Shown here piece by piece: positions 16,510 to 32,000 of a stretch of DNA of 32,000 bases. A program made the translations under genes and the position numbers. The stretch is from Promethearchaeota archaeon (GTDB lineage: Archaea; Asgardarchaeota; Lokiarchaeia; Sigyniarchaeales; Promethearchaeaceae): assembly GCA_016933055.1 (NCBI GenBank), contig JAFGBS010000031.1:82465-114464 (forward strand). The letters run 5' to 3'. Each line of letters starts with the position of its first letter. The first letter of the stretch is position 1. A model generated the notes under the pieces. The model had not been told where the DNA came from and did not search any database. It saw nothing but the letters and a program-made list of their open reading frames with translations.

Positions 16510-17580
16510 TTATCTAAATTTGGATAGATCTAATTCGAATAGTCCGTGGTCTTTAATCACATCTAATATTTTTTCAATTAATAACTCAAGATTTTTTTTA
16601 TCTTTAGCATTGGTTCGTATTATAGATAGATTTCCTATTTCTGGCTCAATTTTTTTCTGGAGTTCTTCCATTTCTTCATCTGTTGCAAGATCCATTTTAT
16701 TGAATATAATTATGCAAGGCACACCCACCTTATTGATGAATTCATGCAAGATTTCTTTGAATAAGGATATTTGATGATGTATTGAATAACCTGATGTTTT
16801 CGACGGATCAAAGATAAAGATGATAATATTGGAAATTGTTCGCAATGCCAGTATCGCTTTTTTCTCAATATGATTACGTTCGATCATCGGTCGGTCTAAA
16901 ATTCCTGGTGTATCAATCAACTGGAATAATTTAGTGTCTTGGGCATCTTTATATAATCCTATGATTATCTCTTTGGTGGTGAAAGGGTATTCTCTGATTT
17001 GAGGTTTGGCAGTCGAAATAGCCCTAACCAGGCTTGATTTTCCTACGTTAGGGTAACCCGCAATAACTGCTGCTGGAAGCTCCGTATCAATTACTGGGAT
17101 AGACTTTAATTGCCTTCGGGCCTTTTCTAAATATTCCAATGTATTTTTCTGTGCTTTAATGACGGATGCAACCCGTGCATAATATTGTCTTCGCACTATA
17201 CTACATTGATTTGAGCTGGTTTGCTGGTTAATTTCCCGAATTTTTGAGGATAATAATTTCTGCAAGACAGGAATTATTCCATTCAATCGTCCCAGATTAT
17301 TTTTTAAAATCTCTTTATCTACTAAAAGATGACTTAATTCTTGGTAAAAAGGATGTAATTCATCTAAATTGGGAACAGATTGGATGATATTTTTAATCCG
17401 ATTTACAATATAGGAATTAACATTTTGAATTCGATTTACTTCATTTCTTTTTGCTTTTAAAACATTATCAAAGCGTTGAGGAATTGGGGCAGTTTTTTTT
17501 GAGCTACGACCGAATGCAATGTCAATGAGTTCTTCTGCGCTAGGAACTGGATAAAAATTTTCAAAAGGATTCTTTGCCAT
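16510..17580 (-). CDS. nog1: NOG1-family (Obg/DRG-like) GTPase, large ribosomal subunit biogenesis
   Basis: N-terminal helical NOG1 region (ELIDIAF.R...LHPFY.EL), G1 AGYPNVGKSSL, G2 YPFTTK, G3 DTPG, G4 NKMD. Start ATG 17580 or 17592. Confidence 0.9.
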   Translation of the reverse strand: MAKNPFENFYPVPSAEELIDIAFGRSSKKTAPIPQRFDNVLKAKRNEVNRIQNVNSYIVNRIKNIIQSVPNLDELHPFYQELSHLLVDKEILKNNLGRLNGIIPVLQKLLSSKIREINQQTSSNQCSIVRRQYYARVASVIKAQKNTLEYLEKARRQLKSIPVIDTELPAAVIAGYPNVGKSSLVRAISTAKPQIREYPFTTKEIIIGLYKDAQDTKLFQLIDTPGILDRPMIERNHIEKKAILALRTISNIIIFIFDPSKTSGYSIHHQISLFKEILHEFINKVGVPCIIIFNKMDLATDEEMEELQKKIEPEIGNLSIIRTNAKDKKNLELLIEKILDVIKDHGLFELDLSKFR

Positions 17581-17863
17581 TGGTGGATGCACCGGTCACA
17601 CGTTTTATATATAGAATTTGGTTTGTTTGCTCGTTGAAAATCTTTTCTATTCTGTGAAAGGGAATCCGAATTCTTTCTTGAATCGCAGAATTCCAATATT
17701 CAAATGAATCCGAATGGATTTCGAGTAAATTTTCAAATGCAATAATTAAATAATCTTTAGGGACCCCCCGATGTGTATATTGAATCATGACATGAGTTTT
17801 TTGGCTGGAATACTTGGGGTCCCATTTGATTTGATTTAGTAATTCACGAATTGTCAGCAACAA
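17561..17863 (-). CDS. DUF504 (MJ1316-like RNA-end-recognition domain) protein
   Basis: IRELLNQIKWDP, I.Y.HRG and IPFHRIEKI motifs. Confidence 0.8.
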   Translation of the reverse strand: MLLTIRELLNQIKWDPKYSSQKTHVMIQYTHRGVPKDYLIIAFENLLEIHSDSFEYWNSAIQERIRIPFHRIEKIFNEQTNQILYIKRVTGASTNGKESF

Positions 17864-23644: not shown

Positions 23645-24133
23645 ATGAAAATCTACATAAAAAAGTGGGCACATAATGCAAAATTACCCACTAGATCGCA
23701 TATAGATGATGCGGGATATGACTGCTATATACGGTGTTTCAAAAAACCAGTTTTAAAAGGTGGAAATAACCAACTCGTAGAATTAAATGTAGATGAATAT
23801 ACTCTCAAACCCTTGGAACGAATTGGGTGTCCATTAGGTTTCGGAACTGCGATTCCAGTAGGATATTATGCAGCAGTGGTTCCTCGAAGTGGAAATGCTT
23901 TATGGAAGGGACTTTCTATAGTGAATACTCCTGGCACTATCGATGCTGGTTATCGAAATGAATGGATGGCAATAGTCGTGAATTTATCTAATGATGATGT
24001 CATCATAAGAAAACATGAAAAAATTTGCCAGTTTATCATTCGTAAACTTCCAGAAACCGAATTGATAGAAGTTGCGGACCTATCAGAATCCGATAGGGGA
24101 TTAGGAGGATTTGGATCGACTGGAAAAAATTAA
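23645..24133 (+). CDS. dut: Trimeric dUTP diphosphatase
   Basis: All five motifs: AGYD, PRSG, GTIDAGYR.E, ICQF, RGLGGFGSTG. Confidence 0.95.
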   Translation: MKIYIKKWAHNAKLPTRSHIDDAGYDCYIRCFKKPVLKGGNNQLVELNVDEYTLKPLERIGCPLGFGTAIPVGYYAAVVPRSGNALWKGLSIVNTPGTIDAGYRNEWMAIVVNLSNDDVIIRKHEKICQFIIRKLPETELIEVADLSESDRGLGGFGSTGKN

Positions 24134-24299
24134 AGGGTATTTTTTTACAATTCTGTATTTCTTATACTATTTTTTCTATACTTAAGCATTTACGAGGTAT
24201 TTAACAAATTATATAAACAGAGTAATTTCATAATATCGATTTGCTCAAAACAGACAAAGATATCTAATTTCTGTGATTTCCTGAAAATAGGTGCAAAAA

Positions 24300-27200
24300 A
24301 TGAGAAAAATTAACTTTAAGATAACATACTCACTTAGAAAACTTAATAGATTAGTATTTATCACGTTTTTCATCCTTTTAACAATATCTGCTGCATCAGT
24401 CCCATTATCTCTCCATGATAAAGGATACGAAACTGATACAGAAATAAATGAGATTATTATGACAACTCCAGAATCCTCAGATCTATTCGAAAATAACATT
24501 CTCTATTCAGGGATTGAAAATCCATTAACTGTCAATGAAACTGCTATCCACTCTTCCACCAACCATTTTACTATTGGGAATGGAACGAATTCTCTATACT
24601 CATCTCAATATGCGGAATTTCCCATAGATTCCACGCATGATTGGGAGGGATATTACTATAATGCAACCTTTACAAATATCCAAGATGAACGTGATTGGAT
24701 CGAACAAGGGGATATGGGAAGTGATTCGGGATTAGTTGGATTAGTCAAAACAACACTTGGCACCCCCATAGAATCACAACATGACTACCAAAATAATCAA
24801 GATGCAGATCCTTCTGATCCTGATGGAACGATAACCAGTAACAGCGATTTTGTTCGAGTACATTTCAGTAGGTTTGAAGTAGAAGATGGTTATGATTTTC
24901 TGTATGTTTATGATGGTTCCAATAATTTGATCGATTGTATAACTGGATTGTATCCCCTAGGATTGAATTCAAGTATGTACAATGCAACCATTCTGAAATT
25001 TTCCATCCAATCTGACGGAACTGTTAGAGAGTGGGGATACTCCATTGACTATATTGAAGAAATAAATCAAAGTACTTGGAGAACTTATAAAACTTACATG
25101 AATCCTGAATTTGCTAATTCCAAAATTAGTGAATTAGGAGGTGCATCTTCCTTAGGAGCATCATTCATTGGTGATTATGACAGTTATGATGGTTCATATG
25201 ACTATTATATCGGAGAAGTAGGATTTTATGAAGAATTTATAGTTCCACGTGGTAAGGTTACAGATGCGTGGTTCTCAATGGATTATTATTTAAATAAAGG
25301 GCTTGAATCAAACGATTTTCTGATTTATTGTAAAATAAATGGTGAATTTGTTTACACTCGAGGATTTGGAACAATAATCAATTTAGGACGAAATTTATGG
25401 CATTCAACAGGAGCAATTAATCTCCTACTATGGGAAAATGCTACTCAGATATTTAATCCAACCATTCAAAATCAAAACTTGAATATATCCTTCGGCATTT
25501 ATGCTCCTTTCTCCTGGGGTTATTACGGTGGTGAGGATGTAATTCAGCAAGAAGCCTTTTTTGATAATATATCATTAGTCTTAAAAACTGAAGCAAATTG
25601 TACTCAGATCGGTATTAATTTACAAATCGATGGTTTATCCGTATCTGAATCCCCTTCCTGGGGTTCAGGATCTTTAACCAAGTATGGATCATGGGATAGC
25701 AATCCAATGCAACTGCTTTTAAGTACTGATGCAGAAAAATTGGAATTTGATCTCAACTCGAAAATATATGGATATCATACAGATTCTACGCATGAACAAA
25801 CCAATGGAGTAACTGGAGCAAGAGTCACGATTTTTTCAAACGACACGATTCAATGGGATTCGTATCATAATGTTTTCGTCCCATCCCAATATTCTGAATT
25901 CTCTTACAAGGTTTACAAACCTTTTGATTGGAATATCACAAATGTTGAGGATCCAACAGGTTTACAACATTTGAGTTATATTGGTGGTGATATAGGCGAG
26001 AATAGTTTTATAATTGAAAGTGATTTTTTGGGTTGGTGGTATTTTGAAGCGAAATCAGATAGTCTATTAATATCTTCATCTACAGACTTGTGGGATGAAT
26101 TAACATGGAAAGATTATGATAGCGAAGATATCTCTTATGATATTGGAGATAGTATAAGAATTAGAACAGCTGTTTCCAATCCGAGTCTCATTGGCAATTT
26201 GCTCTCTACAACAGCGAAAATTACGGTGTATTACCCAAATGGAACGATTTATTACACAGATCATGCAAATCCAGATGGTTCTGGTAATATACAATTTTCA
26301 GATCATGGGATCTTGGCAGCCAATACTTCTGGCGGGGTGTATCAATATAAAATAATATGGACAAATGGAACTGCTGCTGGTGGGCTAAATGGTTCATTTG
26401 AGATCAAGCATGCTATTCAACATACACTCCTTTATCCAAGAGATGCAATATTAGATTATAATACTGAAGCAGTATTCGGAGATATAATCCCTGTCCGATT
26501 GAAATTAAATGATTTAAATACTGGGATATTATTATCTGAATTAGACGTTGAACATAATTGGATCACGGGAAATAATACACTAACAAAAATGGGCTCTGGA
26601 ATTTATGATGTTTCATTTGACACGCTTGATTTACCAGGAGTTGGGAAATATGAAGTAGATTTCACTGTCTCTGGACTAGGATTTTATTCCATTTATTTCA
26701 CTTTAAATATTAGTATTGTCTCAGAAACAGAGCTAAAAATCATAGGATTAGATAATAACATTGATTACGGAACGAATTTTACTATAGAAATTGACTATCG
26801 CACAAAACCTGAACCAATCGGAATTCTTAATGCTCTGATTACCACTAATATTACAGATTATTATGTGGAAGAACAAGTAATTGATGGGCATTATTTGATA
26901 GAAATTAATTCTTCAAGTTCCTTTGTAGGTGCTGGAACATATGACATTCAGATAAATGCATCTCAAACAGATTATTATTCTCAAGTATTGGTGACCCGTA
27001 TTCAAATCCTTCCCAGGTCGATATATTTTGAAATACATATCAATTCTGTTGATTGTACATCAAATAAATCGTATGCTACTAAAATCCAAGAAGATCTGCA
27101 CTTCTCAATAGGAGTTTATACAGTATCAGGGGGTATACCCGTATTGACTGGAACTGTACAGTTATCTGATGGAGTTTCATACTCTTCCCCCTTCTCTCTA

Positions 27201-28445
27201 ATAGAAAATAGATATTATAGCATGATCGGATCCTCATTTTTTGGATTGGGAGTAAATTTTATTAGCATTATTTTCAATGAGACTGGTTACCAGTCTGCTT
27301 CGGAGATTTTACAAATATCTGTGACCCGTATAAACTTAGATGCGATATTTCAAGATTCTGATACCATGTTGGTAACCAGTAGGGATGATTTTTCTACACG
27401 AATTTTTTTAAAAGATCCCAGAACTTCAAATCCGATTTTAAATGCAACGGTTACGTATAGCTGGACCTTCGGTACGGGTTTTCTAACTGAAATCGGAGAA
27501 GGGTGGTATGAATTTTCAGAAACTGCTCCTACTCAATCTGGAACCTACAAAGTGACATTTACTATTACACCTGTAAATTCTGATTATGAGATTTTAACCA
27601 TGCAAATGACTCTTGTTTCACAAAAACCAGATACTATTGTGAAATGGTGGTGGATAGCGATCCCGGTTGGTGCTGTTATTGCAGTTTTATCCGGTTCTTT
27701 AATTGCTATAGGAGTAAAACAAAAACAAACGAAAACCCGAGAACAAGAAATCGCACGATTAAAACTAAAAACTCAGATTTTTGATGACATAACTAACATC
27801 AAAGGCATTCTTCTGATAGAGAAACACAGCGGTTTGCTGATGTATAGGCATGTATTAAGTGGTTTGGACGAAGAGAATGAAGAATTATTCTCAGGTTTCA
27901 TAAGAGCAATTCTTCTATTAGGTAAACGATTTATCCGAGATGAGGAGGAGATTGAAAAAGGTATGGTATTTGAGAAAAAAGAGTTCATTGAATTTACTCA
28001 CGAAAATTTCAAGATTTTGTTGGTGGGTGGTCATAAAATAATTATGGCACTTATTCTTGAACAACAAGCTTCGAAAACTATTCGGGAAAAAGCAACAAAA
28101 TTCATTGAAGAATTCGAGGGGATCTATGGATCAGTTTTAGAGGGTTGGAATGGAAATCGAAATGTATTCGAAGACACCACTCCAAAGCTATTCGAGGAAA
28201 TCTTCAATCTCTCTTTATTAAAAGCATTCAAATTAACAGACAATTCTAAAATTTACGAGAAAAAATTGATTACTCCAGGTTCCATCTCAGAGCGAGTTTC
28301 GAATGTAATACAAACCCTACTTGAAGAAAAGGAAAGTTTTCATTTGAAAACCATCATTTCATTAATACCTGAAGGTGACCAACTTGCTGCTAAAGAAATA
28401 ATCCTGAAATTTATAAAAGGGAAATATATTATTCCTTTGGATTAG
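24300..28445 (+). CDS. Large single-pass receptor-like surface protein, paralog 1: leader / CUB-like / beta-rich / Ig-like repeats / TM / cytoplasmic longin-like + putative winged helix
   Basis: Hydrophobic leader LVFITFFILLTISAAS. CUB-like ESQHDY...VHFSRFEVEDGYDFLYVYDG...FSIQSDGTVREWGYSIDY (about 24768-25058). Repeated Ig-like strands. TM WWWIAIPVGAVIAVLSGSLIAIGV (27645-27716). Tail LFSGFIRAI...WNGNRNVF. ATG 24300 has AGGTG 6 nt upstream. Confidence 0.8.
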   Translation: MRKINFKITYSLRKLNRLVFITFFILLTISAASVPLSLHDKGYETDTEINEIIMTTPESSDLFENNILYSGIENPLTVNETAIHSSTNHFTIGNGTNSLYSSQYAEFPIDSTHDWEGYYYNATFTNIQDERDWIEQGDMGSDSGLVGLVKTTLGTPIESQHDYQNNQDADPSDPDGTITSNSDFVRVHFSRFEVEDGYDFLYVYDGSNNLIDCITGLYPLGLNSSMYNATILKFSIQSDGTVREWGYSIDYIEEINQSTWRTYKTYMNPEFANSKISELGGASSLGASFIGDYDSYDGSYDYYIGEVGFYEEFIVPRGKVTDAWFSMDYYLNKGLESNDFLIYCKINGEFVYTRGFGTIINLGRNLWHSTGAINLLLWENATQIFNPTIQNQNLNISFGIYAPFSWGYYGGEDVIQQEAFFDNISLVLKTEANCTQIGINLQIDGLSVSESPSWGSGSLTKYGSWDSNPMQLLLSTDAEKLEFDLNSKIYGYHTDSTHEQTNGVTGARVTIFSNDTIQWDSYHNVFVPSQYSEFSYKVYKPFDWNITNVEDPTGLQHLSYIGGDIGENSFIIESDFLGWWYFEAKSDSLLISSSTDLWDELTWKDYDSEDISYDIGDSIRIRTAVSNPSLIGNLLSTTAKITVYYPNGTIYYTDHANPDGSGNIQFSDHGILAANTSGGVYQYKIIWTNGTAAGGLNGSFEIKHAIQHTLLYPRDAILDYNTEAVFGDIIPVRLKLNDLNTGILLSELDVEHNWITGNNTLTKMGSGIYDVSFDTLDLPGVGKYEVDFTVSGLGFYSIYFTLNISIVSETELKIIGLDNNIDYGTNFTIEIDYRTKPEPIGILNALITTNITDYYVEEQVIDGHYLIEINSSSSFVGAGTYDIQINASQTDYYSQVLVTRIQILPRSIYFEIHINSVDCTSNKSYATKIQEDLHFSIGVYTVSGGIPVLTGTVQLSDGVSYSSPFSLIENRYYSMIGSSFFGLGVNFISIIFNETGYQSASEILQISVTRINLDAIFQDSDTMLVTSRDDFSTRIFLKDPRTSNPILNATVTYSWTFGTGFLTEIGEGWYEFSETAPTQSGTYKVTFTITPVNSDYEILTMQMTLVSQKPDTIVKWWWIAIPVGAVIAVLSGSLIAIGVKQKQTKTREQEIARLKLKTQIFDDITNIKGILLIEKHSGLLMYRHVLSGLDEENEELFSGFIRAILLLGKRFIRDEEEIEKGMVFEKKEFIEFTHENFKILLVGGHKIIMALILEQQASKTIREKATKFIEEFEGIYGSVLEGWNGNRNVFEDTTPKLFEEIFNLSLLKAFKLTDNSKIYEKKLITPGSISERVSNVIQTLLEEKESFHLKTIISLIPEGDQLAAKEIILKFIKGKYIIPLD

Positions 28446-28448
28446 CCA

Positions 28449-28467
28449 TTTTTTTTTCCTTTTTTTT
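28449..28467 (+). terminator. Oligo-T terminator (T9-CC-T8) after paralog 1
   Basis: TTTTTTTTTCCTTTTTTTT starts 3 nt after the TAG at 28445. Confidence 0.6.
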
Positions 28468-28486
28468 AAGTGACTTAAATATAAAA
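28465..28486 (+). promoter_or_regulatory. Perfect 7-1-7 palindrome overlapping a TATA-like box upstream of paralog 2
   Basis: TTTAAGT-G-ACTTAAA (28465-28479) runs into TTAAATATAAAA (28475-28486). Confidence 0.45.
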
Positions 28487-28542
28487 GTATGAATTTTTTT
28501 TAATCTCGTATTGTAACAAGAGATGATAAGGAAAGAAAGGAT

Positions 28543-31500
28543 ATGCCAAAATTAACGAGGTTTTATAAGAATTACATAATTTTGGCCATCCTTTTTTTGG
28601 GAATCTTTTCAAATATCAACACTAGGTTCCTGCCAGAAGTAAATAATACAATTTCTAAAGGAGTACACGATTCACCAGTCAGTTCAGATGTTTTTGATTC
28701 AGGAATCCTTTATTCAGGAATTCAAGATCCTTTAGGAATAAATGAAACGGCTATTCATACAGCAAGTGACCATTATACCATCGGAAACGGAACTAACCCT
28801 GATTATACCTCCCAAAATGCGGAATTTCCTCTTGATGTAACAAATGACTGGTACGGATATCGATACTCAGCTAATATCACTAATCTTGTGGATGAACAAG
28901 ATTGGATTTTAAACGGAAACTTTGGCAGCGATGTTGGTGTAACCCCTTCTACTCATATTGTACAAACATTTGAATCCTCCCATCCTTATGCTAATTCCCT
29001 AAATTCCGATCCCAGCGTCCTTGCAAACATAATAGCATCAATCGATGGAAATGGATGTAATTATATGAGGATTCATTTTGTGAATATTTCTACTGAGTGG
29101 AATCTAGATACACTTTATCTATGGGATGAATCCAATAATTTATTGGGTTGGTATGAAGCAAACTATGAAGATCTAATAACTCCTTGGTTTAATACATCTG
29201 TTGTAAACATCACAATGGAGACAAGTTCTTCGGGCACTGATTATGGGTTCTATATTGATTATTTCGAGACATATAATGGACAACTCTTTTCATTTAATTC
29301 TGATAACTGGACTCCCTATGGGAAAGGACTTGATTCAAGCAGAATGAATGCAGTCGCGAGTCATCAATTGAACAATTCTGCCATAAATGTTACACTAGCA
29401 GGAGTTCCGGGAACCGGGAATTCATACAGTTATAAATTTGATGAATCTGGAATATATCAAGAATTATCCATTCCTCGTGGAGGGGTACATGAAGCATGGC
29501 TCTCTATGGATTATAATGTACTTAGGGGGATTAATAACAATGAAATGATTTTATTTTTCAAAATTAATGATGTAATAATTTACCAGCGTGGATTTCAAAC
29601 TATTACGGGAGAGGGATTAACAAAATGGCATACCACGGGATTAGTTCAAATATCAATTCCTTCTTCAGTATTTAATGACCCAGTGAATGACCAAATCGTA
29701 AATATTTCTGTTGGTGTACAAGCAACAAAAAACAAAGTATATTCATTTAATCATGCGGACTTGCAGGAGGTCTATTTTGATAATATCACCTTAATTTTAA
29801 AAGCAGAAGTAAACTGCACTAATACGAATATAAACTTAAAAATTGATGGTCTTTCTCCGATTGATTCTCCTCTCCAGTGGGGAGAAGGAACTTTCAACCG
29901 ATTCTATGTCTGGGATACGAATCCAATTGAAATTTCATTAAGCACTGATACATTAAAGGTTGAATTTGACTTAGAATCTACAATATATGCTTTTCATTTC
30001 AATTATTCAAAACTGGAAGAGTATGGTGATGTAGGATCCCAAGTTATCATTTATACCAATAATTCTGTCCATTGGGAAACTTATTATCGAGTATATATTC
30101 CACTTTATTATGGGAATCTTGGATTTTCAGGAAACAAACCTCAAGATTGGGAAATGCTTCAGATTAATAATCCTCTAGACGATTCTGTGCCATTCTTAGA
30201 CGGGGAAAAAGGAGACGAGATATTTACGGTTGAGGGAGTAAATACTCCAGGCTGGTGGCGTTTTAAAGCAAGATCTACTAATATGATACCCTCCACTTCC
30301 ACAGAAGTATGGAATGGAATGGATTGGGAAAATTATCTTGATCAGATTACGTATAATATTAGCGATACATTGAGAATAAGAACCGCATTAAATGCATCAC
30401 TGGGTAATATTGAAAATAACGCCTCAACATGGGCTAATTTGACTATTTACGATCCAGACGATGGAGTATGGCATACTGAAAGTGTACATCCAGATATTAC
30501 AGGAGGAATTCAATTTTCTGATGTGAATATTGGTGCTTTTAATACAACGGGGGGAACCTATCGATACAAAATTATTTGGACAAATGGAACTAGTGCCGGA
30601 GGAAGAAATGGAACATTTATCGTTCAAAGAAACCTAGCATTTTCAATTTTGTATCCCAGAGACGCAATTGGAGATATGGTGACGGAAGAAATTCTCGGAG
30701 ATGTTATTCCACTTCGATTTATTTTGAATGATTCATTTACTGGAGTGAAACTGTCTAATTTACAGGTCCAATACAACTGGACTACTGGTACCGAATCTCT
30801 CATTGAAATTAGTCAAGGTATTTACGACGGAGCTTTAGATACTTTAGATTTAATGATTCCTGGCTATCACGAGATAAAATTTATAGCTTCTGGTTTTGGG
30901 TATCATAACTTAACTTTTATTTTAAAGGTTAATTTAGTTGAAGAAACCGAGGTAAAAATCATAGGACTAGACAATAATATCGATTATGGTACCAATTTTA
31001 GTATACGGATTAGTTATACATCAAAACATTTGAGCTATGGGATACCTGATGCCAATATCACTCTAAATTTATCTTCTACACACTATCTCGTCACCCCTGA
31101 AGTTGAAGATGGAAAATACATGATAGAGATCTCCAGCAAAGATGCATTTATGGGAGCAGGGTTTTATGACATTCAAATTAATGCTTCAAAACTCTATTTT
31201 CAAGATCAAGATATTGTCACTCGAATTCAAATCCTACCACGAACAATCTATTTCCAAATTTACATTAATTCTGCCGACTGCACCCTCAATAAATCCTATT
31301 CAAGCATCATAAAACGAAATCTAAATTTCTCGATTGGTATCTATTCATCAGCAGAACACTTACCTATATTAGAGGGGAGTGTATATATGACAGATGGAGT
31401 ATATACATCAGAAGCATTTGAAATTGTAGAGAGTTATTACTATTTGGAATTAAATACGTCTCAATTTGGATTAGGTACTCATTTTATCAGTATTATTTTT

Positions 31501-32000
31501 AATGAGACAAGTTATCAATCTGCATCTGAGAACCTAATGTTATCTATTACTCGTTTAAATTTTAATGCTTCATTTTACAACACCGAGGAAACCTTAGTTA
31601 TCGATCGGAACAAGGACTTTGAGGTGATTATAAGTGTTGAAGATCCATTGACTCATTTACCCATTACTGAGGCTAATATTTCCTATAGCTGGGTTTTTGG
31701 TCGAGGATTTCTGACAAATCTGGGTGATGGAAGATATGTATTCGAAGATTTAAGTCCCTACAATCTTGGTACGTATAAAATCACTTTTACAATTTCGTCA
31801 CCAAATGAGGATTATGAAACCACTACATTAACGTTGACTTTAGTATCTCAATTACCGGAAGGTACTTCCAGAATTTGGTGGTTTTTAATTCCTAGTGGAA
31901 TTGTAGCAATTATTACCACATCTATCTTACTTTTCAATGCCTACAAACGAAAAGTGATTATTCCAAGACAAGAACAGGAAATTAAACTACTAAGAAAGAA
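28543..32000 (+). CDS. Large single-pass receptor-like surface protein, paralog 2 (3' truncated by the window; not in the ORF track)
   Basis: I translated frame +1 from ATG 28543 (MPKLTRFYKNYIILAILFLGIF) to the window end with no stop (over 1150 codons). Collinear with paralog 1 (ILYSGI.DPL..NETAIH, GNGTN, YKIIWTNGT.AGG.NG, LYPRDAI, KIIGLDNNIDYGTNF, TRIQILPR.IYF, FISIIFNET.YQSASE). TM IWWFLIPSGIVAIITTSILLF near 31873-31935. Confidence 0.9.
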   Translation, partial: MPKLTRFYKNYIILAILFLGIFSNINTRFLPEVNNTISKGVHDSPVSSDVFDSGILYSGIQDPLGINETAIHTASDHYTIGNGTNPDYTSQNAEFPLDVTNDWYGYRYSANITNLVDEQDWILNGNFGSDVGVTPSTHIVQTFESSHPYANSLNSDPSVLANIIASIDGNGCNYMRIHFVNISTEWNLDTLYLWDESNNLLGWYEANYEDLITPWFNTSVVNITMETSSSGTDYGFYIDYFETYNGQLFSFNSDNWTPYGKGLDSSRMNAVASHQLNNSAINVTLAGVPGTGNSYSYKFDESGIYQELSIPRGGVHEAWLSMDYNVLRGINNNEMILFFKINDVIIYQRGFQTITGEGLTKWHTTGLVQISIPSSVFNDPVNDQIVNISVGVQATKNKVYSFNHADLQEVYFDNITLILKAEVNCTNTNINLKIDGLSPIDSPLQWGEGTFNRFYVWDTNPIEISLSTDTLKVEFDLESTIYAFHFNYSKLEEYGDVGSQVIIYTNNSVHWETYYRVYIPLYYGNLGFSGNKPQDWEMLQINNPLDDSVPFLDGEKGDEIFTVEGVNTPGWWRFKARSTNMIPSTSTEVWNGMDWENYLDQITYNISDTLRIRTALNASLGNIENNASTWANLTIYDPDDGVWHTESVHPDITGGIQFSDVNIGAFNTTGGTYRYKIIWTNGTSAGGRNGTFIVQRNLAFSILYPRDAIGDMVTEEILGDVIPLRFILNDSFTGVKLSNLQVQYNWTTGTESLIEISQGIYDGALDTLDLMIPGYHEIKFIASGFGYHNLTFILKVNLVEETEVKIIGLDNNIDYGTNFSIRISYTSKHLSYGIPDANITLNLSSTHYLVTPEVEDGKYMIEISSKDAFMGAGFYDIQINASKLYFQDQDIVTRIQILPRTIYFQIYINSADCTLNKSYSSIIKRNLNFSIGIYSSAEHLPILEGSVYMTDGVYTSEAFEIVESYYYLELNTSQFGLGTHFISIIFNETSYQSASENLMLSITRLNFNASFYNTEETLVIDRNKDFEVIISVEDPLTHLPITEANISYSWVFGRGFLTNLGDGRYVFEDLSPYNLGTYKITFTISSPNEDYETTTLTLTLVSQLPEGTSRIWWFLIPSGIVAIITTSILLFNAYKRKVIIPRQEQEIKLLRK

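Follow-up and report, generated by a model that had tools for sequence, protein, structure and literature searches.

An intact second copy of a gene for a predicted longin-tailed surface protein in a Promethearchaeota genome

We analyzed a stretch of 32,000 nucleotides (the window; positions 82465-114464 of contig C5 in genome G000) from a member of the Promethearchaeota, a Loki-type Asgard archaeon. Two related genes lie in tandem near its end. We refer to them as paralogue 1 and paralogue 2, and the second runs off the window, at a point where C5 itself terminates. We found that window positions 28543-32000 are the first 1152 codons of an intact gene of 1374 codons. The order of parts in the protein is a leader, ~100 residues, a CUB-fold domain, a jelly roll, a stalk of ~690 residues, a membrane helix, a charged linker of ~25 residues, a longin domain, and a helical end. 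The features are listed below, in window coordinates unless a contig is named.

24300-28445, plus strand: paralogue 1, a context gene of the same architecture, 1381 residues from the ATG at 24300 (frame from 24291)
28446-28542, plus strand: spacer between the paralogues, 97 nucleotides
28543-28632, plus strand: paralogue 2 residues 1-30, basic then hydrophobic (hydropathy peak at residue 12), taken as a signal peptide or signal anchor
28633-28950, plus strand: residues 31-136, conserved N-terminal segment, 53% identical between paralogues
28951-29289, plus strand: residues 137-249, CUB-fold domain, from structural matches of a model and a transitive sequence link
29290-29811, plus strand: residues 250-423, beta jelly roll like that of carbohydrate-binding modules, a likeness of the model's fold only
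29812-31875, plus strand: residues 424-1111, sequon-rich stalk, 46-61% identical between paralogues
31876-31944, plus strand: residues 1112-1134, single membrane helix at a hydropathy peak, with basic KRK on its C-terminal side
31945-32000, plus strand: residues 1135-1152, start of a charged juxtamembrane helix; the window and C5 end here
G000:C27:88-754 (L004): remainder of paralogue 2, reached through an overlap of 87 nucleotides
C27:113-523: residues 1162-1298, predicted longin domain, from a model and its structural matches
C27:527-751: residues 1300-1374, helical, winged-helix-like end, followed by the stop codon at C27:752-754

The open frame and its continuation on a second contig

A preliminary description of this DNA had noted that frame +1 stays open for more than 1150 codons. 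We counted 1152 codons on the plus strand from the ATG at 28543, with no stop through the last full codon of the window. By our own arithmetic, with ~7% stops per codon expected at 35% GC, the chance of such a frame is ~e^-85. The nearest homologues of the protein are, by database name, from metagenome-assembled genomes of 'Promethearchaeota archaeon'.

The rest of the gene was found on contig C27. The last 87 nucleotides of C5 (window 31914-32000) are exactly the first 87 nucleotides of C27 (L004 1-87), and this sequence is unique in the genome, so the two contigs can be joined, giving a scaffold of ~311 kb. Read through the overlap, paralogue 2 has 1374 codons and no internal stop, and it ends at C27:752-754. 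C27 supplies 222 further residues that are 56% identical to the tail of paralogue 1. That is, extension past position 32000 gave a 1374-residue protein with its tail, and neither an early stop nor a frameshift.

Three independent lines of evidence favor the join. A Logan contig of 196,707 nucleotides from run X1, which is probably the source sample, spans 24000-32000 without a mismatch and extends past 32000. In G001, a genome of the same genus, a single contig (C121) carries the last 128 codons of the paralogue-1 orthologue, the spacer, and an uninterrupted paralogue-2 orthologue of 1390 codons, tail included. The third line is what lies 3' of this gene, a conserved spacer and then the start of a homologue of the methyltransferase that follows paralogue 2 in C27 (43% identity, E 3.5e-13). 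Based on the overlap, the synteny and the bridging contig, we infer that C5 and C27 are joined through the gene.

Two metatranscriptome runs of the same study gave no sequence aligned to 24000-32000, which is not a measure of expression. Pieces of contigs at 100% identity to 24000-32000 also occur in a hot-springs metagenome from 2017 (run X2, another study), besides the 2021 sediment run. The end of the paralogue-1 orthologue of G001 is present on two contigs (L019:3-400 and L008:4609-4995) with a few amino-acid differences, probably because strain variation broke the assembly at this locus.

Age of the tandem pair and size of the array

We compared the two paralogues with each other. BLASTP gave 490 identities in 1132 positions (43%), with 64% positives and 3% gaps. 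The alignment covers residues 32-1151 of paralogue 2, is collinear without rearrangement, and closes just past the membrane helix on RQEQEIKLLR in paralogue 2 and TREQEIARLK in paralogue 1. At the nucleotide level the genes are 55% identical and the longest exact run in common is 15 nucleotides. Even where the two proteins have the same residue (other than methionine and tryptophan), only 46% of positions use the same codon, and an identical 15-residue motif, KIIGLDNNIDYGTNF, has synonymous differences at seven of its 15 codons. Because of the low nucleotide identity, the short common run and the low codon sharing, paralogue 2 is not an assembly duplicate; the comparison indicates two genes, without recent gene conversion. 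The preliminary description had called the genes collinear from leader to membrane helix, with a common charged juxtamembrane helix beyond it and widely differing synonymous positions, and all of this was borne out.

The two genes have separate orthologues in G001 and in a third genome, represented by contig L020 from ENA, in the same order and with the same synteny. Orthologues in G000 and G001 are 60% (paralogue 1) and 64% (paralogue 2) identical, and identity between paralogues is 43-48%. In a tree, the seven genes from the three genomes form one clade (support 100/100) apart from order-level relatives. Within it the paralogue-2 clade has support of 100/99 and the paralogue-1 clade 92/94, the latter falling below our threshold of 95/80. 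Given these clades and the synteny in the relatives, the duplication is therefore older than the split of these species, and the comparisons identify paralogue 2 as the downstream member of an old tandem pair.

Constraint differs along the proteins. The tails are the most conserved part, with 82% and 73% identity between orthologues; between paralogues the tails are most alike (53-61%) and the CUB region least alike (31%). The proportion of synonymous sites that differ (pS, Nei-Gojobori) was 0.65-0.84 in all comparisons (~0.75), which is saturated. The ratio of nonsynonymous to synonymous rates (dN/dS) is thus not estimable, by domain or otherwise, and what can be stated is that the nonsynonymous proportion (pN) is well below pS. 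Overall pN was 0.23-0.36; between orthologues it was 0.23-0.26 over the full length, 0.11-0.19 in the tails, and up to 0.40 in the CUB and jelly-roll part of paralogue 1. These values indicate that both copies are under purifying selection, grading from a constrained tail to a fast-evolving head, with no decay. The earlier proposal of an old duplication kept under selection, and not an assembly duplicate, holds for the pair.

The proposal that a receptor array continues past the window did not hold. The stop codon of paralogue 2 (C27:754) is followed (L004:806-4703) by a gene for an 812-residue Type ISP/MmeI-like N6 DNA methyltransferase with a specificity domain (PF18135 at 5.9e-49, PF02384), and then by one for a 474-residue homologue of MttB-family trimethylamine methyltransferases. 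A count of further paralogues in tandem after 32000 gave none, and by tblastn with either paralogue the genome has no third close copy; the remaining matches were two distant relatives, one on C35 and one at about 192 kb of C27. The tandem array here is two copies, and only the gene itself crosses the window end.

Relatives of the tail are more widely spread in this genome. A profile of the tail, which detects the tail of paralogue 1 at E 3e-70, found five full-length tails and ~11 weaker longin-only matches. The five are those of both paralogues and of open reading frames of about 1758-1768 (C27, L005:5058-10334), 1960 (C10:~70453) and 761 codons (C35:~41870). The 1758-residue protein on C27 has ~400 residues beyond the tail module, with weak TPR/MIT-like matches.

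In L020 the array is larger. This contig has the upstream synteny in common (MFS transporter, D12 methylase, RpiA, pyridoxal phosphate enzyme, GNAT, dUTPase) and carries three tandem copies (L020:5637-16722), T_a, T_b and T_c. T_a is the paralogue-1 orthologue. Its frame changes within the longin tail near L020:9371, both halves being 72-81% identical to paralogue 1, and the cause is an error of assembly or else a frameshift of very recent origin. T_b branches early within the paralogue-2 clade, and T_c, truncated by the contig end, groups with the paralogue-2 orthologues. Between T_b and T_c (L020:14066-14190) is a ~40-codon fossil of a paralogue-1-like 3' end, which points to duplication of the whole unit of paralogue 1, spacer and paralogue 2, followed by loss of most of one gene. 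The array has gained or lost units since the species split.

The spacer between the paralogues has features of a terminator and a promoter, as had been proposed. In archaeal transcription, oligo-T tracts serve as terminators and an A/T-rich TATA box lies ~25 nucleotides before the start. Directly 3' of the paralogue 1 stop are runs of nine T (28449-28457) and eight T (28460-28467), and T-runs follow this stop in all three genomes. A TATA-like sequence, TAAATATAAA, is located at 28476-28485, 57 nucleotides 5' of the paralogue 2 ATG. This 10-mer occurs twice in the window (0.58 expected) and is found at the corresponding site upstream of the paralogue-2 orthologues in G001 and L020, in a spacer that has otherwise diverged. 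The T-runs and TAAATATAAA are compatible with a separate promoter for paralogue 2. An additional run of eight T (28494-28501), between TAAATATAAA and the ATG, complicates a simple promoter reading. A scan for bacterial-type signals found promoter-like sites no more often than in shuffled sequence, and no hairpin terminators; its bacterial model is unsuited to an archaeon.

Elsewhere in the window, a 360-residue open reading frame on the minus strand (16510-17592) has a weak Ras match (E 1e-5), and one of 257 residues, also on the minus strand (1868-2644), has no Pfam match at E<=0.001.

The predicted ectodomain and tail

The layout of the protein fits a type I single-pass membrane glycoprotein, with the N-terminus outside and the C-terminus inside. 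This topology follows from the basic-then-hydrophobic N-terminus, the one membrane helix (residues 1112-1134), the basic residues after the helix, and the distribution of sequons. The ectodomain of paralogue 2 contains 35 sequons (16.3 ± 3.4 in shuffles) and that of paralogue 1 contains 25 (13.6 ± 3.0 in shuffles). In contrast, the tails contain none (paralogue 2) or 0-1 (across both paralogues).

Neither paralogue gave a Pfam match above the cut-off, and the head was analyzed with an AlphaFold model of residues 30-450, built from a 14-row alignment. The mean predicted local distance difference test score (pLDDT) was 66.8, with most of residues 136-424 at 70-92. No fold can be assigned to residues 31-136, because pLDDT is ~30 there. 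Residues 137-249 (model 108-220, pLDDT 74-92) match the CUB domains of enteropeptidase, C1s, Kremen, neuropilin and cubilin (Z 9.8-10.5, root-mean-square deviation 2.5-3.2, ~100 residues aligned). At the sequence level, this region aligns at 38% identity (E 8e-15 and 2e-9) with two repeats of P0157, the second of which is a Pfam CUB match (43.9 bits), so the sequence link to CUB is transitive. The Pfam CUB model (PF00431) gave no direct match to P0002:120-260 or P0001:130-270. Residues 137-249 hold one cysteine, and the two canonical CUB disulfides (four cysteines) are therefore missing. P0157 itself is a subtilase-like protein of 1082 residues from an ENA metagenome, with two tandem CUB-like domains (residues 199-412) before its catalytic domain.

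Residues 250-423 (model 220-394) match CBM15, CBM22, CBM36 and reelin repeats (Z 9.6-10.8). In the model this jelly roll resembles a carbohydrate-binding module in fold, and it also resembles reelin and MAM domains (Z 9-10.8 over all matches). The stalk that follows probably consists of immunoglobulin (Ig)-like beta sandwiches. There are Atlas leads to Ig-like Big_3_5/MG clusters, below threshold and with scores <0.9; Pfam gave no match, and a search of PDB sequences with a stalk profile gave nothing significant.

The preliminary description had predicted a longin tail just past position 32000, and at the level of fold this is what was found. We modelled the tail from a 42-row alignment of tail relatives (pLDDT 89.7; predicted template modelling score 0.83). 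DSSP gave strands (E) and helices (H) at E8-15, E21-26, H33-55, E64-70, E73-79, E83-89, H95-117 and H123-143. This order, bb-a-bbb-aa, is the longin order b1-b2-a1-b3-b4-b5-a2-a3, and the helical end comes after it. When the model was compared exhaustively with the structures of 48,161 solved chains, the top 16 were longin domains (Z 10.5-12.8 over model residues 7-143), including AP5 sigma, Sec22, sedlin, synbindin, VAMP7, CPLANE and the Lokiarchaeal Roadblock-Longin protein 8yqg, and Foldseek with the same model gave the same families. Roadblock/MglB chains matched over the core only (model residues 3-114, Z 8.5-10.4). The roadblock order is a-bb-a-bbb; a juxtamembrane helix does precede strand 1 of the tail, mostly outside the model. 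By its model, then, the tail has a longin fold, with a topology closer to longin than to roadblock.

The tail is a common module of the phylum. Among 1.84 billion proteins, 329 representatives matched at E<=1e-3, their lengths ranging from 88 to 1914 residues, and every Atlas cluster that has this two-domain tail is from Promethearchaeota. At E<=1e-10 the module was found in 100 of the 121 genomes sampled from the phylum, and in 51 of the 52 of high quality; a genome may carry as many as 16 copies, frequently close together on one contig. It occurs with quite different ectodomains across the phylum. Of the 131 representatives with enough upstream sequence, 125 have a strongly hydrophobic 19-mer no more than 70 residues upstream of the module (median 23 residues). 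Thus, the defining trait of the family is a predicted longin domain held just under the membrane.

A possible surface platform for small GTPases

Longin and roadblock domains are platforms for GTPases (PMC3747258), and in MK-D1, 26 of 74 small GTPases are fused to one or the other (PMC10933270). Lokiarchaeal cells have complex surface proteins on a single membrane, seen as surface densities by cryo-tomography, and no ordered S-layer (PMC9834061). We propose that the ectodomain of paralogue 2 would bind a glycan or the surface of another cell, and that the tail would keep a longin platform close beneath the membrane, at a constant distance, much as membrane-anchored Ragulator presents roadblock dimers. 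The partner of the longin domain would be a longin or roadblock protein of the cytoplasm, or one of the many Lokiarchaeia fusions of a GTPase to such a domain, and through this pairing a small GTPase would be recruited or regulated at the position of the surface protein. Two paralogues would then differ in what they bind while feeding one type of intracellular output. We have moderate confidence in the overall explanation, that paralogue 2 is a real old paralogue encoding a type I surface glycoprotein with a longin tail and a platform role. Taken alone, the proposed part (binding by the ectodomain, a GTPase platform in the tail) is tentative and, in our judgment, has the odds against it; the same caution holds for the platform step, which is argued by analogy with Ragulator, TRAPP and MglB (PMC5680233, PMC3747258, PMC10933270).

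Several observations weigh against this explanation. The join of C5 and C27 was deduced from the overlap, the synteny and the bridging contig. By sequence, the tail belongs to none of the Pfam longin families (Longin, Sybindin, Sedlin_N, Clat_adaptor_s, Intu_longin); among the 42 tail relatives, two give a marginal match to Intu_longin_1 (E 0.008), nothing is above the cut-off, and a search of PDB sequences with the tail profile gave nothing significant. The last 75 residues weakly resemble a winged helix, and the hints are DsvD at E 0.11 and an Atlas row with HTH_47 in 50% of members. There is no GTPase gene adjacent to the pair. The nearest, for a Ras-like protein of 182 residues (L004:8214-8762, minus strand; match at C27:8259-8747), lies downstream at a distance of 7.5 kb. 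For a genome of 3.76 Mb with at least 54 Ras-like matches, taken as ~54 such genes, a distance of this size is not unusual (own estimate, p ~0.2). In SNAREs, for example, longin domains work without GTPases. The suggested partnership of the tail with a GTPase is drawn from its fold, and a fold says nothing certain about function.

Alternatively, the protein may be a passive coat or adhesin, belonging to the complex surface proteins that stand in for an S-layer, with a tail that only anchors or spaces it, or oligomerizes it through longin-longin pairing under the membrane, and engages no GTPase. The large, sequon-rich, fast-evolving ectodomain, the carbohydrate-binding-module fold in the head, the surface densities seen by cryo-tomography (PMC9834061) and the lack of an adjacent GTPase gene would all suit a coat, and longin and roadblock domains commonly dimerize (PDB 8yqg title; PMC10933270). 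However, the tail is the most conserved part of the protein (82% and 73% identity between orthologues) and is common to proteins with quite different ectodomains across the phylum. The latter suggests a common cytoplasmic partner and not mere anchoring, because a membrane helix alone would anchor. We regard a passive coat as unlikely, although it is the alternative to be taken most seriously. The tail might instead be a sorting tag that sends the surface protein to protrusions or vesicles via coat- or adaptor-like proteins. In VAMP7, Sec22 and Ykt6 it is the longin domain that controls sorting of the SNARE, and among the best structural matches of the tail are the longins of Sec22 and VAMP7, together with the AP sigma and zeta-COP subunits. 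Adaptor-like and ESCRT proteins are encoded in Asgard genomes (10.1101/2020.10.19.343400). In contrast to the longin SNAREs, in which the longin domain is N-terminal on a tail-anchored protein, the longin domain here follows a type I membrane helix and no SNARE motif is present. We consider a sorting tag improbable.

A gene cut by the contig end, and the frameshift in the tail of the paralogue-1 orthologue of L020, might suggest that paralogue 2 is an assembly duplicate or else a pseudogene in decay. This is excluded, to our minds almost completely, by the 55% nucleotide identity with a longest common run of 15 nucleotides, the frame of 1374 codons without a stop, pN far under a saturated pS, intact orthologues in G001 and L020, and pieces at 100% identity in a run of a second, unrelated study. 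A bolder form of the platform idea is that the two tandem paralogues make up a heteromeric receptor, their longin tails pairing under the membrane and switching or recruiting one of the 54 or more GTPases when the heads bind. Duplicated longin or roadblock pairs occur in TRAPP, Mon1-Ccz1, NPRL2-NPRL3 and Ragulator. Structure prediction of the two tails as a complex scored 0.00, which is no evidence either way. We think a heteromeric receptor of this kind quite unlikely, if a little less so than a sorting tag.

The closest known proteins are two GenBank 'hypothetical proteins' from a Promethearchaeota metagenome-assembled genome, EU530_11575 and EU530_08620 (P0154 and P0007), which have the same domain order as paralogue 2 from leader to tail. 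P0154 is its orthologue, 64% identical over the whole protein and 66% in the head, in the same tandem order and with the same flanking genes. Paralogue 1 has the same domain order but is only 43-45% identical. The longin domains of eukaryotes (Sec22, VAMP7, Ykt6, sedlin/TRAPPC2, synbindin, AP sigma, zeta-COP) and 8yqg are like the tail in fold and order, the two C-terminal helices included. In contrast, sequence identity to them is only 6-12%, and in paralogue 2 a type I membrane helix precedes the predicted longin by ~25 residues, with a sequon-rich ectodomain of ~1100 residues before it. Ragulator (lipid-anchored LAMTOR1 with roadblock heterodimers) and MglB-MglA likewise place a platform of the longin/roadblock superfold at a membrane, where it recruits or regulates small GTPases (PMC5680233, PMC3747258); paralogue 2, by contrast, would be anchored by its own membrane helix, has a large extracellular part, and is nearer in fold to longin than to roadblock. 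In animal CUB receptors (neuropilin, Kremen, cubilin fragments), a CUB fold is likewise at the outer end of a single-pass protein, but the CUB domain of paralogue 2 is without canonical disulfides or a direct Pfam match, and the two kinds of protein have unrelated cytoplasmic parts. The likeness is not meant to imply a common origin of the receptor layout. A longin followed by a small helical, winged-helix-like domain, the predicted layout of the tail, is found in NPRL2/NPRL3-type proteins and in the asCOG class 'NPRL2-like longin domain' (10.1101/2020.10.19.343400). No NPRL2/3 chain is among the best 50 structural matches listed for the tail.

Abundant Asgard longin domains and their fusions have been published (10.1101/2020.10.19.343400; PMC10933270), including NPRL2-like longins fused to many other domains (10.1101/2020.10.19.343400). 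The papers we searched did not describe a protein with CUB, jelly roll, stalk, membrane helix and longin in this order; none paired 'Asgard' with 'CUB domain', and none of those we read reported a membrane-tethered longin receptor. The work on paralogue 2 adds that the second copy is real and complete, that the gap between C5 and C27 can be closed, that the pair predates speciation, and that the array varies among relatives.

Eukaryotes use the longin fold to dock small GTPases. Asgard genomes encode dozens of small GTPases and longin and roadblock proteins of unknown wiring, and the cells have complex surface proteins that are unexplained. What paralogue 2 does, including any link to a GTPase, is something we infer, and a family with a predicted longin domain ~23 residues under the membrane, at the inner end of large, fast-evolving and putatively glycosylated ectodomains, is a concrete place to seek a link between the surface and GTPases. 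If the heteromeric receptor were true, it would be a prokaryotic pathway from a surface receptor to a GTPase, in the lineage closest to eukaryotes.

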